Source: Asterionella formosa
Taxonomy: Eukaryota
Direction: 5' to 3'
Assembly: GCA_002256025.1 (NCBI GenBank)
Contig: NKIB01013053.1
Location: 44,899 to 64,898, forward strand
Length of the DNA stretch: 20,000 bases
A program made the position numbers and the translations under genes. Below, piece after piece: positions 579 through 18,279 of this stretch. The notes under the pieces were generated by a model. It saw only the letters and a program-made list of their open reading frames with translations, ran no database searches and was not told the DNA's origin. Position 1 is the stretch's first letter. Each line of letters begins with the position of its first letter.

Positions 579-943
579 AGAATTTCGAATGATATTTGGA
601 AAATTAATAGCGAGGTCTGTGCATGATACACATGAGAAATTTTCCAGATAACGAGGAAGCACGGAGTTTCTTTTACCTCCCAGTACCAGGAGTACCTCGG
701 ACCTACCGTACAAAGGATCATGTTGAATCAACGTACCGGTAAGGGGGTTGTGGTCTTATTCTTTGCTTGCTTCCCTCTTCTCTTTTTAGCTGATTTAAGT
801 AGACGAGGAAATATTATCATATGTATGTATGGATGCAGCCGCCGATGTATATTACCTACCGGTGTATATGTAAAAAAAACACATTATTTCTGATTTACAA
901 AACTAAATCTGGTGGAAGCCTCTGGCCCTCGTCTGTGTCCACC

Positions 944-3877
944 ATGCCAGGCTCCTCAACTCATGATCACAGCTCCTTCAAGCCCAACAGCTTCGGAAGA
1001 CTCGGCGCGCTGGGCACTCAATTCTCTTCGCACGACGTAGAGGTGAAGCGCCTTGGCGCATTTCTCAACCAGGGAGCCTTTGCAGGGTTAATCATTTGGA
1101 TTACACTTGTCTTCGTCGTCTTTTACGCATCTCCACCAGAATCCTATGAGTACCTTGAAGGCCACGAGCTCAAAGCAAACTTACTTCTCTTCGTATTGCT
1201 CTTTGTTACGAATGGCTCGCGATTGCTGCCGCTTTTTTTCAAGGAGCACTCCCAGTTCATGAACACTGGCGCCATGACTGGCTCTTTCACCATCCAGGGC
1301 ATTGCTCTCGCGTCTTGCGGGATCATGATATGTTTACCCACACCAGTTCTGATGGATACTATCACAAACCGACGGGTCCATCTGATGCGATGGGTGGAGT
1401 GGATCCCCCTTGCCTTTCTCATGACCTTCCTCACGGAAGCCATTGACATGCCCAATCACGATCAAGCCGTAGAAGTGGCGTGGGGACATGCATGGGCCCT
1501 GGCCTTCAGTACCATGGCGGGGATTATATTTCCGTTCTGTACCACCCCGTGGCAGTGGATGGTGGTCTTTGTCATTTCTTGCATTCTTTTTTGTAGTTTG
1601 TACGTCCGACTGTATCAACGAATGATGAGGTTTCGACGAACCCCCGTGGGAAATAGTGTCGATGAACAAGAATTGCACGACCGAGCCCGACTGAGTTTCA
1701 GGTTGCTTCAAGCATGCTCCATCATGTGGACGGGAATCATCGTAGCATTTGTTGCGTGCTGCGTTGCGGGAAAGTTTGCGCCAGAAGGGTCATGGTGGGC
1801 GAATCCAGCCTTGCCACTAGTGGTTGAGTGTGCTTTTGAAATTGGATCCAAGATGTGGTATCTCTTGCTTATTGCGGATGTTCATGAAAGCATATTCGAC
1901 GAAGGATTAAGGAGCATCCGTCGATTGAAAGAAATGCGGGATATGATGACCTGTGTGTGGGAATCATCGTCTGATGCAATTGCACTTTGTGTCAGGGGAA
2001 AGGAAACCATAAATGCCGTGGTGAGTCCAACTTTTTTGCGCCTGGGTACAGAAAATGCGGAAAGCGATTCCATGAAGTTGGCTCTTCTATTTGAAATTAC
2101 TCTGCAACCCAATAGTCAAACCAAACCAGAACACAGAATCGCAACCATGGCTATGGCGAAGCTTGGCAAGAGCAAAAAACATAGCCCTAGCCCACCAAAT
2201 TTGCTCTCAGAATTTTTTCACGATGACATGGACTCTTCAGATCAACGGAAAATTGCATCAATGGCGAAGCTGCTCGCCAAATCATGGCACTTTAATAGCC
2301 GAGAATCTCTTGTCATGCATGACTTGTACGGAGAAACACCGACAGGTGAACTACGAACGATTCGATGCGAAGCGAAGATTACCAAGTTAGCCAATGATGC
2401 AGCTGTGGTGGTGTTGCGCGACATTTCGGAAAGATTCCAACGATTTGAAACCGAGAAACAACTCGTTATCGCACTTACGGAGCGCAAGAAGGATTCTGAA
2501 GCGAATCGCTTTGCTCGTCACGAGGTCAAAAACAGTTTAATAGCCGCGCTTTGGATGGTCAATTCCATCAAGGATACCATGGAATCGCCGGATGGAATGG
2601 AAACGAGCAGGGAAACAATGATCAACGTGAGGAGGGAAGCTGATCAGTCTGAAAGTCAAGCGCAGGGCAGTCTTACCCTGGGAAAGGCCGATATTCCTTT
2701 GAATTTCCCGGGTTATATGCGAAAATTGGAAGAGAAGCTTCGCGAGGTCCTGGATACATTGGTGACGGAAGCCATAAGTCGTGAAGTCGTCAAAGAGATT
2801 TACCAACCTCAAAATGAGGCAACCGACATTCGTAGCCTTTTGTCGAAAAATAACCACATGGCATCTTCTGCTGTTGATGATCGCTTTCCCATTTTCGAAT
2901 CAAGGAATCCCTTTCCCAAAATCCTCATCGATCCTGATCTCGTATGTATTTTCCATCGTCACGCCGTTTCGAACGCAGTCAAATATGGCAAACAAGGTGG
3001 TGTGGTGCAAACATATCTCGCTTACGAAACTAAGAATAAGCAGTTGCTCATAAGTGTTACAAACCAGCCTGGTAAAAATCATGCAGTTTTGGTGGAAATG
3101 AACGAGGATGAGACGGCGAAAATATTTTCCTCAGGAACCCGTCTCAACGTGAATAGTAGACCAGTAGACAAAGCAAGTGATGCCCTGTTTGCTATAAGTC
3201 CGGCAGGTGGCGGGGCTTGGATCATGCAAAAGTGTGCCGCGACCATGGGGGGACAGTGTACTATCAAATTTGAGAAAGACTCAACCATATTGTCTCTTTC
3301 CTGTCCTGCCGATGTTGCATCTGACGACTTGTATACATCTGGCGTTTTGGTAAGGGATTCAGCATCACATTTTGAAGTTCCCAAGAACACGTGGGGAATT
3401 GCTGTGGATGACTCTGGTATTCAGAGAAAATTTTTGGAGCGCTTCATGTCCTTGTCCGGAATCGAAAGTAGTAGACGAAGGATTCTGGGAGGATCAGATC
3501 AAGAGATTTTTGGATTCAATGAATATCTAGAGAAACTAATTGTTGAAAACCCTGATGACAAGTTTATGGTCATTGTCGACGAGAACCTAGTGGTTGAGGA
3601 GAAAAAGATTCAACAAACAATTTCCGGTTCCAAGTGTATTGAGACACTGCTGCATAATTTGAAGCCTGAAGATTCACTGCGTTTGCTCGCACTTGTGCGC
3701 AGTGAGGCGGATTCCAGCATAGATATCGCCATGTACAAGGCCCGCACTCACGGTTTTATTTCGAAATCACACATTCACAAAGATATGGTGCTACCGATCA
3801 TTGAATGCTGGTGGAAACTGCGTTTTCCCACAGAGGCCGGGGTAGACCTTTCAAGGCAAAAATCGCTTCTTCAGTAA
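944..3877 (+). CDS. Rhodopsin-like 8-TM / PAS-like / HisKA / HATPase / receiver hybrid histidine kinase (candidate histidine kinase rhodopsin)
   Basis: 1018-aa ORF (821..3877); the likely start is ACCATG at 944 (M42). Eight hydrophobic segments lie at about aa 85-354. RWVEW (nt 1388-1402) matches bacteriorhodopsin helix C RYADW, and EIGSK (nt 1838-1852) matches helix G DVSAK. A PAS-like region runs from WESSSDAIAL to VVVLRDISERF. Kinase motifs: H-box RHEVKNSL (H at 2519), N-box SNAVKYG (N at 2972), F-box KIFSSG, G2-like AGGGAWI..MGG. Receiver motifs: IAVDDS (3407), VIVDENL (D at 3578), GFISK. Confidence 0.88.
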   Translation: MPGSSTHDHSSFKPNSFGRLGALGTQFSSHDVEVKRLGAFLNQGAFAGLIIWITLVFVVFYASPPESYEYLEGHELKANLLLFVLLFVTNGSRLLPLFFKEHSQFMNTGAMTGSFTIQGIALASCGIMICLPTPVLMDTITNRRVHLMRWVEWIPLAFLMTFLTEAIDMPNHDQAVEVAWGHAWALAFSTMAGIIFPFCTTPWQWMVVFVISCILFCSLYVRLYQRMMRFRRTPVGNSVDEQELHDRARLSFRLLQACSIMWTGIIVAFVACCVAGKFAPEGSWWANPALPLVVECAFEIGSKMWYLLLIADVHESIFDEGLRSIRRLKEMRDMMTCVWESSSDAIALCVRGKETINAVVSPTFLRLGTENAESDSMKLALLFEITLQPNSQTKPEHRIATMAMAKLGKSKKHSPSPPNLLSEFFHDDMDSSDQRKIASMAKLLAKSWHFNSRESLVMHDLYGETPTGELRTIRCEAKITKLANDAAVVVLRDISERFQRFETEKQLVIALTERKKDSEANRFARHEVKNSLIAALWMVNSIKDTMESPDGMETSRETMINVRREADQSESQAQGSLTLGKADIPLNFPGYMRKLEEKLREVLDTLVTEAISREVVKEIYQPQNEATDIRSLLSKNNHMASSAVDDRFPIFESRNPFPKILIDPDLVCIFHRHAVSNAVKYGKQGGVVQTYLAYETKNKQLLISVTNQPGKNHAVLVEMNEDETAKIFSSGTRLNVNSRPVDKASDALFAISPAGGGAWIMQKCAATMGGQCTIKFEKDSTILSLSCPADVASDDLYTSGVLVRDSASHFEVPKNTWGIAVDDSGIQRKFLERFMSLSGIESSRRRILGGSDQEIFGFNEYLEKLIVENPDDKFMVIVDENLVVEEKKIQQTISGSKCIETLLHNLKPEDSLRLLALVRSEADSSIDIAMYKARTHGFISKSHIHKDMVLPIIECWWKLRFPTEAGVDLSRQKSLLQ

Positions 3878-11285: not shown

Positions 11286-13031
11286 CTAGAAACATCCAGC
11301 TGTCGCAATACCTATTACACAACAGCTACATTGGACACTACAGGGAACTATAGCTTCGATGCTGGAACAATAGGAAGTGGGAGCAGTCCCAACAAAATTA
11401 TTGCCTGACAAATCCAAATGATAACTGACTTGAAGGGACGGCAACGAACCAGTTAGTCTGTTTGATGATAAAGTCAAAACCTGAAGATTCAATAAATTGC
11501 CAAAAACTTCCGGTAGTGATCCCGTGAAACCATTGGCATCCAAACTGAGCACAGCAAGTTTGGTTAAAATTCCAATAGTTGTTTGAAGGGTCCCAGTAAG
11601 GTCATTGTAGCTCAAATCAATAGTTTTGAGGCTTTTGTCTAAGAGTCCAAGCTCAGATGGCAAAGTCCCAATGAAAGCATTTCCTCTCAAATCAATTTGA
11701 GTGAGTGCTGTTAGTAATCCCACAGATGAAGGTAGAGACCCAATTAAACCGGTATTTTTCATGGTGACTGACTTCAGATTTGAAAGGAGGCCTAATTCTT
11801 CGGAAAGGGTACCAGTAATGGAATTCGCAGAAAAGTCTAGTTCAACAAGCGATGTGAGACTGTATAAGCCTTCGGGAATGGTACTTGACAAGATGAGATT
11901 GTTGAGAATCAAAGACGTCAGCTTTGAAAGGCGGTGAATCCCTTCAGGAATGGACCCTTCGAAATTGTTCGAGGACAGATCGAGCACCTTCAACTTAGCC
12001 AACTCCCACAACTCTACAGGAATGCGCCCGTACAACGAATTTACGGACAAGTTGAGGTACGTTAACGCAGGAAAAAAGCGAAAGATGGAGCTTGGCAGCT
12101 CTCCATTGAGCTTTTGACCCAACAAATTGATTGCTGAAACTTTTAACAAAGAATTGCATGTCACACCTTTCCATTCGCATTCACTTCCCGTTCCCAACCA
12201 CTCAGTGGAGTACGTGGACGACCACCCTCCTAAGCTGAGATGCAGCAGTGCGAGCCCAAACCGCTGCTTAATTGTATCGTTGGTTGCGAAAATCCCCGAA
12301 ACATCAGCCATATCTATGGCAGACCACCAAAGTGCAATGTTCTCCGGGCTGCATTCGTCATCTGGACCGCTATATTCTGAAAACAGCTGCGAGGCTCGAA
12401 TGTCAGAGTAAATCGTCATGGTTGATTCAGACGAAATGGAAATTTTCGAAAAACAAGAGCATTGAAGGACTGGGGAAGGATCCGGTACGGGAAAAAAATC
12501 GCATTCACCAGCTTGAGTGGCAGCACTTCCATGCGAGTTTCGATTCTCCTTGCTTGCAAAATAGGCCCCTAAGCCTCCTCCGATCATGGCAGCAACAACC
12601 ACTACAACGACAATCGCCACATGCCACCTTCGCTTGTTCGTCTCCTTCCTCAGAACGACATCAGCATCTATTGTTGGCACGATGCGAAGTGGTAGTGCTG
12701 CCGACGATCCGTGTGTCATTTCCTCTGGTGCGGGACCTGGACTAAAGTCCGTGTCCTCAGGCAATGAAGCTGTCGGATCCCAGGATCGTGTGCTGCTTCC
12801 CAACAGTCCCGAAGTATCTTGCAGCATCCTTTGGGATCTGCGAATCAGTTGTACGGCATAGGCTCCAGGAGTGGTGGTGGTACCATCCGAAGACTCCATG
12901 TTTGCTTCTCTTCCTCGATTTATTGTCCTTGCAGATGTTGCAAGGAGCGCTTCTTCATTGGTAAGAGGACCTAGCGCGGCCTTTTCGCGGCGCTCCACAG
13001 TAATAGACATTCCTCGGCTTGGACGACTCAT
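11286..13031 (-). CDS. Leucine-rich-repeat single-pass membrane protein (receptor-like, no kinase domain), predicted type II topology
   Basis: 581 aa. Disordered N-terminus with PGAYAV, basic KRR before a TM segment (WHVAIVVVVVVAAMIGGGLGAYF), Cys-containing stalk, LRRNT-like cap ECEWKGVTC, about 10 plant-type LRRs (LxxLxLxxNxLxGxIP), C-terminal CxxxCxCC. Confidence 0.9.
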   Translation of the reverse strand: MSRPSRGMSITVERREKAALGPLTNEEALLATSARTINRGREANMESSDGTTTTPGAYAVQLIRRSQRMLQDTSGLLGSSTRSWDPTASLPEDTDFSPGPAPEEMTHGSSAALPLRIVPTIDADVVLRKETNKRRWHVAIVVVVVVAAMIGGGLGAYFASKENRNSHGSAATQAGECDFFPVPDPSPVLQCSCFSKISISSESTMTIYSDIRASQLFSEYSGPDDECSPENIALWWSAIDMADVSGIFATNDTIKQRFGLALLHLSLGGWSSTYSTEWLGTGSECEWKGVTCNSLLKVSAINLLGQKLNGELPSSIFRFFPALTYLNLSVNSLYGRIPVELWELAKLKVLDLSSNNFEGSIPEGIHRLSKLTSLILNNLILSSTIPEGLYSLTSLVELDFSANSITGTLSEELGLLSNLKSVTMKNTGLIGSLPSSVGLLTALTQIDLRGNAFIGTLPSELGLLDKSLKTIDLSYNDLTGTLQTTIGILTKLAVLSLDANGFTGSLPEVFGNLLNLQVLTLSSNRLTGSLPSLQVSYHLDLSGNNFVGTAPTSYCSSIEAIVPCSVQCSCCVIGIATAGCF

Positions 13032-13993
13032 GGTTGATACATGTTGTGTTCAAAAAGTCAATGGCAAGGAACAGAACATTAATTCTATGTGCGATGGGCC
13101 CCTTCGGAATATATGCACATGACCGCTGCTGTCAGAGAGAACTGCAAGTAATACTCTCTCTTTGCGGTCACAATATAATCATTAAGTACAACATTATGTA
13201 CAAAATATCTTATTGCACCAGCCATTGCAGCATTGCAATAGCATCCTTTGACATCCTTCGCCCCTTCGGTTTTTACATACAATACAAACATCCCATATAC
13301 TGTGGTGGATTCTTCAAATTGTTTACTTGGGACAGGTAAATTAATCACGTTTCTAAGCAATCCCAATTACGGTATCTGGTACAGGTAATTGGCGATGTAC
13401 ATGGTACCTGATACCTGATTGCACCCCTAAATATCAATGCCTCCTTGGAGTTTTGTACATAGTCTTGAGTCATGTTATTTAGTATTACAGCACTGATGTA
13501 TAGCCCATTCGTGACTAAATCCAAGACAAGGATATAGTTCACCACTTATACGCATATATAATATATGTACAACACACGAAGAAAAACTTTCTACCGGGAC
13601 TGCAAGTTTGACGATGATCATTCATGAGTTCAATAAATGTTATCAAATCCTTATATATTTACATTTCTTATGAATATTCATACCGGTATATATGAATAGT
13701 TTTCCGGACAACACATAACGGAATCAAGTTTAGACATTTATTATTTCCGATGGTATTTTTTAACAGTACTTTAGATTGATGATATGACAATACATGTAAC
13801 GGGGTTTTCTCTAATTTAACTTTATGGAATACTTTTAATTGTACACAGTAGCATCTCGACCCATACTTCGTCTCCAAAGGAGACATTTCGACGAGGAGAG
13901 TGACTTCTTTCCGTTTTGTCGACAGGAACAGAGGATTGAATCTTACCTCAATATTTGTTGATCATCGCTCTATCGTATAGTCACTCGAGAATA

Positions 13994-15709
13994 ATGTCTG
14001 CAGGTAGCATCTCGTCAGGAAGGGGCAAAACGCGAAGGGATGATGCCGAAGAAACGGAGACTTGGGGCCAGCCCTTTCCGCTGGGAGGTTCCCTCGACCA
14101 ACTATCTAATCACACTCGGCAATTTGTCATGGACTCAGAAAGCCCTCCTTATAAGCCCCGACCGTCAATGACAAAGTTGGATAGTATGGGCTCATCCATG
14201 ATCTCCATCGCTCATTTTGATGACTCCCTCTCCGATCTTCGCGACAATCTCGAGAGATTTTCACAGGAAGGGACCAAGGCGCGAATGACCAACAAACCTT
14301 CCAAACAAACGAGGACTGCTTCTGTGCTTAGTAGTAGTCACAAAAAGATTCTGATTGCTTATTATATTTGGCTATTCACAGCTACAGCTGTGTTTACAGG
14401 TCTTGCCGTGAGCATGCACATGCAATCCAAAAACGCAGTCTACACCACCATTGGACAGTGCAACAATGTGTCTGGGAACCCTTACTTGCAATGTATCTGT
14501 GGCCAGAGTCAAGTCACTGGTGACGTCTCGGAAATTGTGGATCTTCGTTTCATGGAATTGAATATTCACTTTGGACTTGAAAGGGGTGCGATTTATGACA
14601 CAAACTCTTGTCAGAACCCATACAATGTAGCCCTTTGGTGGCTGGCTATGAAGACTGAAAGTCTAGATGCCAAGAGACTGATGACTCTGTTTTCATTGGC
14701 GCTTTTGTACCTTAATTTAGATGGAACTAATTGGAACCATCAGACTGATTGGATGTACCATGAAGTGAACGAGTGTGATTGGGGAGGAGTCACTTGTTCC
14801 TATGAGTTGCTCGCTGACCCGTCCACTACAAACGTTGATGCTGGTGTTGTGGTACAATTGGTTTTGGACAATATGAAGTTATCCGGGAGTTTGCCCAGCG
14901 AGATTGGCTTGTTGACCGACTTGGAAACGCTGAGCTTGGGCAACAACGATTTCTGCGGCAAATTGCCAAAAGAAATTTTGGGTCTGACCAATCTTCAAGA
15001 GTTGTCATTGCAAGGAAACGCGTTTGAAGGCACAATACCCGATCCAACTATTTTCTCACATTTAAAAGTTTTGGTACTTGGGAACAACAAGTTCTCTGGA
15101 GTTCTTCCAGAGAATAGTCTCTATAAATGGACAGGACTACAGGAGCTCATTCTTGAGAGTAACTCTTTCTCGGGAAGTTTACCAAGCTCACTGGCAACGT
15201 TGACACAGCTATCCAACCTTAATTTGGCCAAAAATACCTTCAAGGGGGCGATGCCGGACATTTTTGCACTGACAGATCTAAAATGGCTCATTGTGAATGA
15301 TAACGAACTGACCGGAACATTGAATAATTTCTTCCCTAATAGGTTGGAAACTCTTGATATGTCCAACAACATGTTCAACGGTACCCTACCAAACAACTAT
15401 GGTAGCCTATCCAAACTCAGCATTTGCAACCTCGGTCACAACAAGAACTTAAGGGGAAAACTTCCGAGCGAATACGGTTCATTGTACAATCTCAATGTAC
15501 TCGGACTCTCCTCGTGTCAACTGACAGGAATCATTCCATCGGAACTTGGAAACTTGGAAACGATATCAATATTGGATTTGGGAAATAACATGTTTAAGGG
15601 CAATATGCCAATGGAGGTGTGTAAATTGAAAGTGACTGGGTTCTTACAAGAGCTGTTGGTGAATTGTGACGTGAATTGCACCTGTTGTCCCAACGACTGC
15701 GATGCTTAA
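13994..15709 (+). CDS. Leucine-rich-repeat single-pass membrane protein (receptor-like, no kinase domain), predicted type II topology
   Basis: ORF 13955..15709 opens on TTG; the first ATG is at 13994. Disordered N-terminus, TM (ILIAYYIWLFTATAVFTGLAVSM) after HKK, LQCIC stalk, NVALWWLA, ECDWGGVTC cap, about 10 plant-type LRRs, C-terminal CDVNCTCC. Confidence 0.9.
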   Translation: MSAGSISSGRGKTRRDDAEETETWGQPFPLGGSLDQLSNHTRQFVMDSESPPYKPRPSMTKLDSMGSSMISIAHFDDSLSDLRDNLERFSQEGTKARMTNKPSKQTRTASVLSSSHKKILIAYYIWLFTATAVFTGLAVSMHMQSKNAVYTTIGQCNNVSGNPYLQCICGQSQVTGDVSEIVDLRFMELNIHFGLERGAIYDTNSCQNPYNVALWWLAMKTESLDAKRLMTLFSLALLYLNLDGTNWNHQTDWMYHEVNECDWGGVTCSYELLADPSTTNVDAGVVVQLVLDNMKLSGSLPSEIGLLTDLETLSLGNNDFCGKLPKEILGLTNLQELSLQGNAFEGTIPDPTIFSHLKVLVLGNNKFSGVLPENSLYKWTGLQELILESNSFSGSLPSSLATLTQLSNLNLAKNTFKGAMPDIFALTDLKWLIVNDNELTGTLNNFFPNRLETLDMSNNMFNGTLPNNYGSLSKLSICNLGHNKNLRGKLPSEYGSLYNLNVLGLSSCQLTGIIPSELGNLETISILDLGNNMFKGNMPMEVCKLKVTGFLQELLVNCDVNCTCCPNDCDA

Positions 15710-16376: not shown

Positions 16377-18279
16377 TTACGCAGCACACCATCCACCACT
16401 AGGAGGTCGGCAAGTTGTTTTACCACTGCTCACGTCAGCGGGTGCCACACAGCAGGTATAACCACCACTACAGGTGTCGACATTTCTTCTACAGTTATTC
16501 CAGTTGGGCACAGTCGAAGATGAAGCGCAATATGTAGCACTTTGGTTTGGTCGACAAGTGGCTTTGCCACTGGAAACATCAGCAGGTGCGACACAGCAAA
16601 CCCAATTATTAGCGCAAGTGCTCGATCCACGTGTGCAGGTACTCCAGTTGGGAATTAGGGGCTGTGATTGCCCCACACTAATGCAGCTGCTACCAGCAAG
16701 GTAATTGCCAATGGCACTTCTTGACTGTGGGCTAAAGCCGTTGGCCCCACTGTTGACTGTCGGCTCCATGATCCATTCGACATTAGAAGTAAATGGATCA
16801 TGGTTATAACCTGTTGTAGATAGTAGGCAGCAAAGGTTAAGTGCATGATGCAAGGTATTGCAGGTATTTGGGATGTGATTCGACAACGTACCAGCATTGT
16901 GTCCCAGTTCGTGGGCAAAGGAAACGGTTTGCGACTGTAGGTCTCGAGATGCAAAGTTATGTATAGCGTAAGAATTTGAATTACAAAGGTTTCTTGTCCA
17001 TGCACATCCAACTATACTGGACTCGAACGAAGTCCCAGTGAACAAGTGAGCTGTGTCTCGATTCACTGAGCTTCTATTGGTATTAAAGTAATTTGTGAAC
17101 CAACGGAGCAGTCCATCTCCTGAACAGCCAGATTGTCTGCTTGCGGTACCGGCTCTGTATGGGTCTGTGCTGGGATCGCAAAAGCCCTCCATGTGAGTAA
17201 TCTGGATCTTGGTGCAAAGATTACTCTGATAGATAGAGGAGGCACGAGCAACGATCTGCTGAGCAATGGCATTTGCATTGTTAGCGCCGCCAGCTTCCCT
17301 GCAGAATGAAGAATCGTACGCAATCGCAAGATCAATAACTCTGAGTGAACCACATCCTGACTGTAAGTTTCTTTCGTCCATTACTGACGAATCAGCTCCT
17401 CTCGCCATCAAGGTTCGCGACTCGTTTCCATTGCTACCATCTTTGCTCGGATCTGCATGCGCCAAAACGAATTGTTTCATTGCCTTTTTATCAAGAGCTT
17501 CAGGAAGCATAATAGCAAGTACTCCGTCTGAAATTTCATGCATTTGCATATTTGATCCATCCGTGTAGGTGATATCGACCGTTTCCACGTTTCCTCCAGG
17601 TCCTTTTGTTACCAGCATAGTACTATCAGATTCAACTTTCATGAAAGTGGCCGCTGTAGGACGTGCCTTCGCCTTTCCCTCAAACATATAAGTGGCATCA
17701 TCAGAAAACACGTCCATAGGGATGAGACCTTCCAGTGAGTGTACGGCACCATTAACCTTAATTGTGTTACGCTTCGAAATCTTTTGCATGGGCAAGTCTA
17801 CCCCCTTTTTCATGTGGTGACGTGACATGAACTTATCCATAATTTCAGTGGAAGGTACCTCGAACAAGGAATCATCATCATCTTGCTTCTGTTTCTTTGT
17901 CTTCTTCAGGACTCTGCTCACTCCTGCGCCCTTCATTCCCATCCCATTTGACCCTAAGACAGACGAAGGAGTTGCATTGATGCTGTGAGGCTCCTCTTCT
18001 TGAGACACACTCCTATGTCCGCGCAGTTCTCCCTGTACGGATGAGTTCCGAAAATTAACAAGTATTCAAAAAGAGAAGTTGTTAGAAACGTTAAAACAGA
18101 ATGTCGGGACATGTGTGTGTTCCTCAGTGTGTGTGTCATAAAATAATGAGAGGCCATTGGATCAAACGGAGGGGTGGTGATACTATGAAGATACCTACTT
18201 TTAGTCCCTCAATGTTAGTGATTGCCATGAGAGCCAATAAGACCGATAGAAGGATAGATTTCTTGTTGAGTTTAGTCAT
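16377..18279 (-). CDS. Secreted zinc metalloprotease, metzincin M12B/reprolysin-like, with pro-region and two Cys-rich C-terminal repeats; 3 exons (18279-18199, 18032-16892, 16810-16377), about 551 aa
   Basis: Exon 1 encodes a signal-peptide-like MTKLNKKSILLSVLLALMAITNIEGLK. After splicing the zinc motif reads HELGHNAGYNHD (HExxHxxGxxHD), followed by the Met-turn WIMEP. Other reprolysin-like segments: IDLAIAYDSSFC, RDTAHLFTG, IVGCAW..LC. Confidence 0.88.
16380..16655 (-). repeat. Two tandem ~45-aa six-Cys coding repeats
   Basis: IPNWSTCTRGSSTCANNWVCCVAPADVSSGKATCRPNQSATYC and VPNWNNCRRNVDTCSGGYTCCVAPADVSSGKTTCRPPSGGWC share the core CCVAPADVSSGKxTCRP. Confidence 0.9.
16811..16891 (-). other. 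Spliceosomal intron 2 of the metalloprotease (81 nt, phase 1, in-frame, stop-free)
   Basis: Donor G|GTACGT at 16891, branch-like CTTAAC, acceptor CAACAG| at 16811. Removal restores HELGHNAGYNHD. Confidence 0.85.
18033..18198 (-). other. Spliceosomal intron 1 of the metalloprotease (166 nt, phase 0)
   Basis: Donor AAA|GTAGGT at 18198 and acceptor TACAG|GGA at 18033. Splicing joins the signal peptide in frame to GELRGHRSVSQEE; the unspliced read-through hits a stop. Confidence 0.8.

Follow-up and report, generated by a model that had tools for sequence, protein, structure and literature searches.

The window, the whole stretch of 20,000 nucleotides of Asterionella formosa DNA analyzed here (contig NKIB01013053.1), carries an uninterrupted open reading frame whose product runs from an eight-helix (8-TM) rhodopsin domain through a PAS-like linker to a histidine kinase and a receiver (Table 1). 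RNA contigs span the frame from position 897 without any listed joint. M42 (944) is a likelier start than M1 (821), because paralog L002 begins there and, as a weak hint, because the RNA contigs begin at 897-898 (two runs, both from one study; runs with shares under 0.2 were left out). Residue numbers are counted from M1. The linker, which we take to be PAS-like from its motifs, gave no Pfam hits, and neither did the receiver-like domain, assigned by motif. A C-terminal guanylyl cyclase is absent, as no cyclase match was found and the frame stops about 35 residues past the receiver Lys.

Table 1. Coordinates of the features of the rhodopsin-kinase gene (positions in the window)
Feature	Position	Strand	Remarks
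Open reading frame	821..3877	+	1018 aa
Extra helix TM0 (model H2-34), including W93	1031..1129	+	W93 equivalent to RhPDE W63
Helices A-G, microbial-rhodopsin fold	1160..1897	+	beta-hairpin in B-C loop
Helix C pocket: R190, E193, W194, P196, L197, F199, M201, L204	1388..1432	+	R190 1388-1390; E193 1397-1399; P196 1406-1408
Helix F pocket: C299, W303, I306, I307, F310	1715..1750	+	W303 1727-1729
Helix G: E336, E340, S343, K344	1826..1852	+	E340 1838-1840; K344 1850-1852
Helical linker and PAS-like region	1901..2440	+	conserved WxxSSD, SP, CEAK and RDISER motifs
H box with candidate phospho-acceptor H567	2507..2539	+	His in 72/75 long members
Divergent HATPase domain	2957..3268	+	N box, NxPG, F and G2 boxes
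Receiver-like domain with D863/D864, D920, S961, K982	3401..3769	+	by motif

Structure prediction, which had been proposed as a check, gave an eight-helix rhodopsin fold for the membrane domain (pLDDT 95.7). The best four Foldseek rows were all RhPDE (E 2-4e-5), and the best VIA match was likewise Salpingoeca rosetta RhPDE (Z 21.5, rmsd 3.6, 264 aligned residues, TM0 included), with model residues 8-301 superposed on 46-320 of 7D7Q. Bestrhodopsin aligned with Z 18.9 and rmsd 5.2 over 288 residues; the first 36 VIA rows were microbial rhodopsins or a BR-based design, and the first non-rhodopsin appeared at Z 14.5. Profile matches in the PDB were found for bestrhodopsin (E 1.1e-6) and RhPDE (E 3.8e-6), identity to solved rhodopsins being only 7-17%. 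W93 in TM0 and S165 in TM2 correspond to the W63-S136 pair of RhPDE, with Ser or Thr at 165 in 150/166 homologs. By positive-inside counts, the basic loops are A-B, C-D and E-F together with the C-terminus, which fits a predicted N-in/C-in topology with both termini cytoplasmic. The membrane part thus has the type-1 microbial rhodopsin fold with equivalents of the Schiff-base Lys, the counterion acids, R82, W86 and W182, and also the features of 8-TM enzyme rhodopsins, namely, TM0, both termini inside (by the predicted topology) and an enzyme fused after helix G.

Sequence searches were largely silent. Pfam assigned no rhodopsin family to this protein, Bac_rhodopsin matched 0/31 long members, and 5/46 members matched it below the cut-off (best E 0.012). 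NCBIfam on this protein, phmmer against PDB sequences and a viral fold library at E<=0.001 each gave 0 matches. The ESM Atlas returned nothing usable with the membrane part and bacterial hybrid kinases only with a whole Seminavis member. A PF01036 genome search gave no match, but control genomes were equally silent, so this is no proof of absence.

The pocket residues named in the original prediction all lie where it had placed them, and its register against bacteriorhodopsin (BR; E193=D85, W303=W182, E340=D212 and K344=K216) agrees with both profile and structure alignments. In helix C, R190, E193, W194, L197, F199, M201 and L204 occupy the positions of R82, D85, W86, T89, P91, L93 and D96; helix F has W303, I306, I307 and F310 at W182, Y185, P186 and W189; and helix G has E336, E340, S343 and K344 at position 208, D212, A215 and K216. 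In profile alignments, RWxEW falls on RYAEW in S. rosetta RhPDE and on RYMEW in bestrhodopsin 7PL9, W303/I306/I307 on RhPDE W264/F267/P268, and E340/K344 on D292/K296; E164, D292 and E271 of RhPDE are the reported equivalents of BR D85, D212 and W189 (PMC7644710). K344 also falls on ChRmine K257. A model cut at residue 312 terminated on RhPDE 273, ChRmine 232 and residue 191 of a designed soluble BR, and W303 is therefore equivalent to RhPDE W264 and BR W182. The cut model and the RhPDE profile alignment ruled out a helix-F register four residues off (I307 = W182), as given by a ChRmine HMM alignment. The structural alignment with RhPDE is out by two residues at its C-terminal end in the offset to K296, probably because of a gap in the linker, and the register was taken from the cut model and the profile alignment rather than from this stretch. 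Helix-C positions beyond W194 depend on the unbroken model helix and ungapped profile alignments. The bulky Leu at the T89 position adjoins the Schiff-base position, and a third acid, E336, overlooked in the original prediction, lies one turn ahead of E340.

A homolog alignment, suggested beforehand as a way to ask whether E193, E340 and K344 are conserved, revealed no free variation at these residues. In a set dereplicated at 60%, K344 is conserved in 148/149 homologs, W303 in 153/154, R190 in 145/149 and E193 in 138/149 (lost in 11/149), with Trp or Phe at 194 in 146/149; the loop lysine K318, used as a control, is conserved in just 12/149. Position 340 is Asp or Glu in 147/150 and Ser in 0, upholding the acidic helix-G ExxxK that had been set against the heliorhodopsin SxxxK. 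Leu occupies position 197 in 135/151, with Asp missing from the residues listed there; 152/154 have L/M/F/V/I at position 204, and an acid is present at 336 in 118/151. W303, K344 and R190 rank as the top three among 284 columns (median column 0.39), and the most conserved columns are retinal-facing (W303, K344, R190, G234, E193, W194 and M201). The predicted membrane light-sensor pocket is conserved across a large algal family whose members standard annotation misses as rhodopsins. The homologs without E193 include one Seminavis gene under purifying selection.

The pocket had been called unusual, and its oddities are real; they are not peculiar to this gene, since Leu at T89, the absence of P91, Leu/Ile at Y185 and Val/Ala at P186 are family-wide traits. 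The Glu/Glu pair (E193/E340), for its part, marks one of two subfamilies (44/137 dereplicated members). The E340 subfamily carries S343 and L/I227, the D340 subfamily mostly A343 and Q227, and the two are probably distinct photochemical classes.

We consider it likely that the protein is a non-pumping, retinal-binding sensor that controls a phosphorelay. Leu at both the D96 and T89 positions, the eight helices and the kinase fusion support this predicted function, in line with the sensory rhodopsin originally proposed, and helix C reads E-L-L in place of the outward-pump motif (DTD/DTE). One alternative, which we judge unlikely, is that the rhodopsin fold holds no retinal and that K344, E340, E193 and R190 make up a conserved polar site whose ligand (an ion, a proton, a lipid or another aldehyde) is sensed by the kinase. 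The family-wide replacement of T89, Y185 and P186, the very low identity to known rhodopsins and the frequent extra acid at 336 would all suit such a site. It is nevertheless the retinal-facing columns that are most conserved, and such substitutions do occur inside rhodopsin families, since NeoR-like proteins that lost all three pocket aromatics are reported (PMC10622942).

The kinase is of a divergent type with the H box RFTRHEVKNG, which Pfam HisKA misses, and its HATPase domain matches Pfam below the cut-off (E 0.026); 27/31 long members match at E<=0.05. Of 103 kinase-region matches, 90 carry the rhodopsin domain; of the other 13, most start within the linker or kinase, and the N-terminus of at least one looks unrelated. 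N714, D797 and the RSAND motif set this copy apart from the family consensus, and the phospho-His is missing from both paralogs in the genome (Asp in L002, Gln in L003), leaving the kinase output of this subclade uncertain. About as improbable as a retinal-free fold is that the protein is a true pigment whose subclade kinase is weak or dead, and that it works in heterodimers as a modulating subunit, the role NeoR plays with RGC1/2. L002 and L003 retain E/E/K without the H-box His, P0255 is likewise His-less, dN/dS against the nearest paralog is 0.40 for the kinase region and lower, 0.16, for the membrane domain, and NeoR is a named E/E precedent. However, the window protein retains H567, N718, the G boxes, D920 and K982, and across the long members His is kept at the H567 position in 72/75 and Asp at 920 in 67/75.

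Far less probable is descent from heliorhodopsins with the helix-G acid regained. The likeness to heliorhodopsins drawn in the original prediction holds for the local RWxE motif, but the wider connection is largely unsupported (profile probability <1%), and RxxEW is common to 8-TM enzyme rhodopsins. RhPDE, bestrhodopsin and NeoR all normally have Glu at D85; because the first two share it, it is not diagnostic for heliorhodopsins. The genome's own heliorhodopsin also has RWVE, Ala at T90, Met at L93 and no P91, one distant family member gave a weak heliorhodopsin match (E 0.14), and heliorhodopsin 6IS6 aligns with Z 18.2 and rmsd 3.4 over 216 residues. In contrast, hhalign against the genome's own heliorhodopsin gave probabilities of 0.35% and 0.6%, and a PF18761 genome search found four other places and not this locus, and on these grounds we reject such an origin; PDB profile searches at E<=10 list no heliorhodopsin, and Asp/Glu rather than Ser at D212, TM0 and the predicted C-in topology also oppose it. 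Least tenable is decay of this copy from retinal binding, a drift that had been proposed and to which the absence of several canonical pocket residues might point, since identical substitutions are fixed family-wide, K344, D/E340, W303 and E193 are conserved among homologs, dN/dS against the nearest paralog is 0.16-0.20 (0.16 in the membrane domain), and the frame is intact and present in RNA libraries.

For the favored retinal-binding sensor, retinal would be bound to K344 as a protonated Schiff base, with E340 as the main counterion and a proton or charge shared between E340 and E193, as described for RhPDE (E/D) and NeoR (E/E). E336 may pair with R190 on the outer side, and the Leu residues replacing T89 and D96 would remove the pump pathway. 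Isomerization could then move helices F and G and the helix continuing from G, altering H567 autophosphorylation and transfer to D920 on the intracellular side. Our low-confidence guess is absorption from green to orange, because a red shift is what the loss of P186 favors, and the Asp of the far-red triad is missing. Atypical tuning or bistability, also raised originally, is plausible, and sequence cannot tell. In keeping with a retinal-binding sensor, the genome has carotenoid oxygenase genes (4 matches).

Named family members come from diatoms and one haptophyte. A literature search, with key subscription papers outside its reach, found no description of the family; PMC13739731 has 17 uncharacterized rhodopsin clusters. 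The portions available of the algal photoreceptor papers searched class diatom rhodopsins with pumps, heliorhodopsins or GPCR-like proteins, treat kinase rhodopsins as green-algal and name no diatom rhodopsin kinase. Seminavis member Sro138_g064650 is annotated merely as an HK/HSP90-like (kinase-like) ATPase; the Seminavis "GPCR rhodopsin-like" genes, described as GPCR-type, are probably a different family. Tentatively, diatoms and some haptophytes may hold a large class of rhodopsin-PAS-kinase photoreceptors that has escaped annotation, fused independently of green-algal histidine kinase rhodopsins (HKRs), whose E-L-L helix C, lack of Y185/P186 and extra helix-G acid might yield new photochemistry (for example, a non-13-cis photoproduct, a red shift or bistability), with Glu/Glu and Glu/Asp as two colour classes that form, together with kinase-dead paralogs, a green-to-orange sensing system. 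If true, this multi-copy family would supply centric and pennate diatoms with a membrane sensor for green-orange light, and its natural Glu/Glu versus Glu/Asp series, free of the far-red triad, would test the Glu/Glu share in NeoR colour.

Among known systems, heliorhodopsins (PF18761) share the RWVE word, Glu at D85 and the absence of P91, but differ in their Ser at D212 (PMC13739731), seven helices and inverted topology, with profile similarity limited to the motif. Green-algal HKRs (HKR1, 2c-Cyclop, Ot-HKR), likened here by architecture alone, have the same order of 8-TM rhodopsin, histidine kinase and receiver, whereas the present protein has no cyclase, a PAS-like linker and a divergent kinase and belongs to diatoms and a haptophyte. 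NeoR of chytrid fungi (PMC12875766, PMC8815786), compared by description only, likewise has Glu/Glu at D85/D212 and lacks Pro at P186, where it has Thr, but carries D140/E141 at T89/T90, where Leu/Ala stand here, and a cyclase; the third carboxylate at T89, a feature of NeoR and far-red bestrhodopsin, is replaced by Leu. Bestrhodopsin Tara-RRB (PDB 7PL9), the best match in two of the profile searches, has a similar B-C hairpin and RYMEW start and likewise lost both prolines (in the profile alignment, P91 is Cys and P186 is Gly), unlike in its triad Asp at T89, Tyr at Y185, Asp at D212 and bestrophin channel. RhPDE (S. rosetta, PDB 7CJ3, 7D7Q; PMC7644710) resembles the present protein in TM0, eight helices, the Trp-Ser pair, Glu at D85, a hydrophobic residue at D96, a non-Tyr residue at Y185 and an enzyme beyond helix G; its Asp at D212, Thr/Pro at T89/P91, Pro at P186, Glu at W189 and phosphodiesterase (PDE) contrast with Glu, Leu/Phe, Ile, Phe and a hybrid kinase here.

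The product of the subject ORF (residues numbered from its first Met, M1) matched no rhodopsin family in a Pfam scan, the sole match being a sub-threshold HATPase_c, and phmmer with this protein found no structurally solved relative. Homologs were collected by word search (39) and as 358 representatives at E≤0.001, 150 of the 358 being listed, and a structure model of residues 70-385 was built on a 95-sequence alignment. This model (mean pLDDT 95.7) comprises eight membrane-length helices, a beta-hairpin ahead of helix C and a helix running on from helix G. Foldseek ranked the Salpingoeca rosetta rhodopsin phosphodiesterase (RhPDE) first (E 2e-5), as did a wide VIA structure search (Z 21.5, rmsd 3.6, 264 aligned, TM0 included), in which pumps scored Z 19-20, bestrhodopsin Z 18.9 (rmsd 5.2, 288 aligned), and heliorhodopsin Z 18.2 (rmsd 3.4, 216 aligned); the best non-rhodopsin reached Z 14.5. 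Family profiles compared with PDB sequences matched RhPDE (E 8.6e-4 to 3.8e-6) and bestrhodopsin 7PL9 (E 1.1e-6), the latter not being among the matches listed in two of these searches.

All pocket residues named by the original prediction are present at their places in the translation, and its register to bacteriorhodopsin (BR) holds in profile alignments and a truncated model. No gap is needed to align helix C with RYAEW of RhPDE or with RYMEW of 7PL9, and W303, I306, I307, E340 and K344 fall on RhPDE W264, F267, P268, D292 and K296; the accessible part of PMC7644710 equates RhPDE E164 with BR D85, D292 with D212 and E271 with W189. The final residue of a model of residues 70-312 lies opposite RhPDE 273, ChRmine 232 and position 191 of a BR-based design, and W303 therefore corresponds to W182. 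A helix F shifted by four residues, seen in a single ChRmine alignment, was ruled out by the same model. In the full model, K344 lies opposite ChRmine 257, its Lys by count from the alignment if helix G is gapless, and the end offset to RhPDE is wrong by two residues, likely reflecting a gap in the linker.

Across an alignment of 181 sequences with 284 columns (median 0.39), conservation is highest at W303, K344 and R190. Residue counts come from a set that was enlarged with later matches and then dereplicated at 60% to 161 representatives, n being those that cover the site. The lysine and both acids of the predicted pocket proved conserved among homologs, with K344 in 148/149, D/E at position 340 in 147/150 (D 91, E 56) and E193 in 138/149, alongside R190 (145/149), W303 (153/154) and position 194 (W 134 and F 12 of 149). 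The non-canonical substitutions are fixed equally firmly across the family: L197 (135/151), F/G at 199 (142/151), M201 (140/153), L/I at 306 (142/154), V/A at 307 (137/155) and an aromatic at 310 (141/155), with P196 in 106/151. This family-wide conservation, together with a dN/dS against paralog L002 of 0.16 in the membrane domain (0.40 in the kinase region; one pair), refutes the suggested drift away from retinal binding. Subgroups represented by P0033, P0034, P0085, P0041 and P0103 have Val, Gly or Ala in place of E193, P0103 also lacking K344, and are candidate shifted or non-pigment members. Four other proteins (P0045, P0049, P0051, P0063) carry 300-650 residues ahead of the rhodopsin domain, where Pfam is uninformative.

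Of the 75 members with at least 900 aa, 72 retain H567, 69 N718, 67 D920 and 68 K982, a gap counting as a miss. HATPase_c matched 27 of 31 members scanned at E≤0.05, and HisKA or a rhodopsin family none of the 31. A membrane domain is carried by 90 of 103 kinase-region matches, most of the other 13 beginning within the linker or kinase. No library domain matched as PAS or receiver in the window protein; from their motifs we take the linker to be a PAS and the C-terminal part a receiver. The 68-Mb assembly holds at least three family copies. Paralogs L002 (1195-3669) and L003 (58-2457) keep the E/E/K pocket, but the phospho-accepting His of the H box is Asp in L002 and Gln in L003, whose frame stops ahead of the receiver; both are possibly pseudo-kinase subunits.

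M42, at 944, is a likelier start than M1 because the close paralog L002 begins there. RNA contigs from four runs (three studies) map onto the ORF with no joint listed, starting at 897-898 in two runs of one study, and are proof neither of transcription nor of the start site. In one run the membrane-domain contig differs from the window at 78 of 1012 letters, and is therefore probably the paralog. Upstream of the gene, short matches at 8-42 and 420-460 belong to RNA contigs that then diverge, suggesting dispersed repeats. Telomere-like short words lie at 142-160, 5805 and 5863; AACCCTAA occurs three times against 0.51 expected, a count reached in 2 of 200 shuffles for a pattern picked post hoc.

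Coordinates of the ORF, its kinase deviations and other features of the window
Feature	Position	Strand	Remark
Single ORF, 1018 aa	821-3877	+	whole finding falls inside
N714 (family consensus His)	2960-2962	+	family alignment
D797 (consensus Gly)	3209-3211	+	family alignment
RSAND (consensus RSEAD)	3704-3709	+	family alignment
Low-complexity ORF, 482 aa	8637-10085	+	no Pfam match
Leucine-rich-repeat protein	11286-13031	-	divergent pair with next; one membrane-like segment
Leucine-rich-repeat protein	13955-15709	+	one membrane-like segment
M12B reprolysin-like metallopeptidase	16377-18008	-	Cys-rich C-terminal repeats; intron may sit right after HELGH motif

Beyond the demonstrated fold, register, conservation and kinase fusion, we consider it probable that the protein is a light-regulated kinase. 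Retinal would attach to K344, with E340 as main counterion and E193 protonated or sharing charge; a pump pathway would be absent, and light would shift helices F and G and the linker helix to alter kinase activity. Our guess for the absorption colour is green to orange. Carotenoid oxygenases (RPE65 family) match at four genome places (L008-L011), and may make retinal. Averaged over the family, Lys+Arg number 3.0-7.6 in loops A-B, C-D and E-F and at the C-terminus, against 0.4-1.5 in the loops on the other side and 1.9 in the N-terminal stretch, a distribution that fits a cytoplasmic kinase.

It is unlikely that the domain is a sensor working without retinal; a pigment with a weak kinase working in heterodimers is just as doubtful. 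Descent from heliorhodopsins, whose likeness the original prediction had seen in helix C, is very improbable. The genome does contain true heliorhodopsin gene pieces (L004-L007), which carry RWVEY and SxxxK and agree with the window protein in RWVE, in Ala at T90 and in Met at L93; one distant family member matches heliorhodopsin weakly (E 0.14). However, comparing family profiles with the genome heliorhodopsins gave probabilities of 0.35% and 0.6%, none was found among PDB matches of the family profiles, Ser never occurs at position 340, and the domain includes a TM0. There, position 93 is W in 123 and Y in 24 of 156, and TM2 position 165 is S/T in 150/166, corresponding to the W63-S136 bond of RhPDE in the accessible part of PMC7644710. 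Decay of the window copy, an uninterrupted ORF, is hardly credible.

Those family records that bear a name cover the diatoms Licmophora, Seminavis, Entomoneis/Amphiprora, Cylindrotheca, Fistulifera, Nitzschia, Mayamaea, Amphora and Ditylum, two centric diatoms whose names are truncated, the haptophyte Tisochrysis and one ciliate record that may be prey sequence. With diatoms as its named relatives, the host is probably a diatom as well. Seminavis Sro138_g064650, a member without E193, is a core gene annotated just as HK/HSP90-like ATPase (piN/piS 0.078) in the portion of PMC7335047 available. The family was not found described in the accessible portions of the full-text literature, including PMC6324907, PMC12558739, PMC8017926, PMC13436692, PMC10962995, PMC12875766, PMC10622942, PMC7335047, 10.1101/2020.11.23.393678, 10.1101/2025.04.02.646541, PMC7644710, PMC13739731, PMC8815786 and PMC12291454; the bestrhodopsin paper or the PMC13739731 supplement could already contain it.

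The pocket is a real, family-wide variant of an eight-helix kinase rhodopsin, and most of its features, viewed one by one, are known from elsewhere. RhPDE, bestrhodopsin and neorhodopsin (NeoR) share the Glu at D85 with the window protein, and 7PL9 likewise lacks both prolines in the alignment. Positions 3.50-3.51 are T90 and P91 by our own count, and 6.53 and 6.54 are Y185 and P186. According to the accessible text of PMC13739731, 3.50-3.51 differ among families, and 6.53 and 6.54 are well conserved inside characterised clusters. In RhPDE, Trp occupies the D96 position and Phe that of Y185 (PMC7644710, in part); P186 is replaced by Thr in NeoR and by Ile in Ruby-ACRs, with shifts of 440-610 cm-1 (PMC8815786, in part), and RGC(a)s at ≥550 nm lack this Pro (PMC10622942, in part).

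Three points appear rarer: the Glu/Glu pair, Leu at T89 and an acid at 336. As far as the available part of PMC12875766 goes, many rhodopsins have DD or ED and NeoR has EE; among dereplicated family members, EE occurs in 44/137 and ED in 81/137. In a midpoint-rooted FastTree of 166 sequences, with residue counts taken from labels, one group (support 0.77) has Glu at 340 in 73/81, and the weakly supported remainder Asp in 77/85. E340 accompanies S343 (78/81) and mostly L/I/M227, and D340 accompanies Q227 (74/87) and often A343 (45/87), pairings that do not prove co-evolution since kin share labels. At T89, NeoR and bestrhodopsin bear a third carboxylate, whereas the window protein has Leu. The acid at 336, overlooked by the original prediction, lies one turn ahead of E340 and is found in 118/151 dereplicated members; at the site of E336 in the window protein, RhPDE carries Asn, 7PL9 Trp and ChRmine His.
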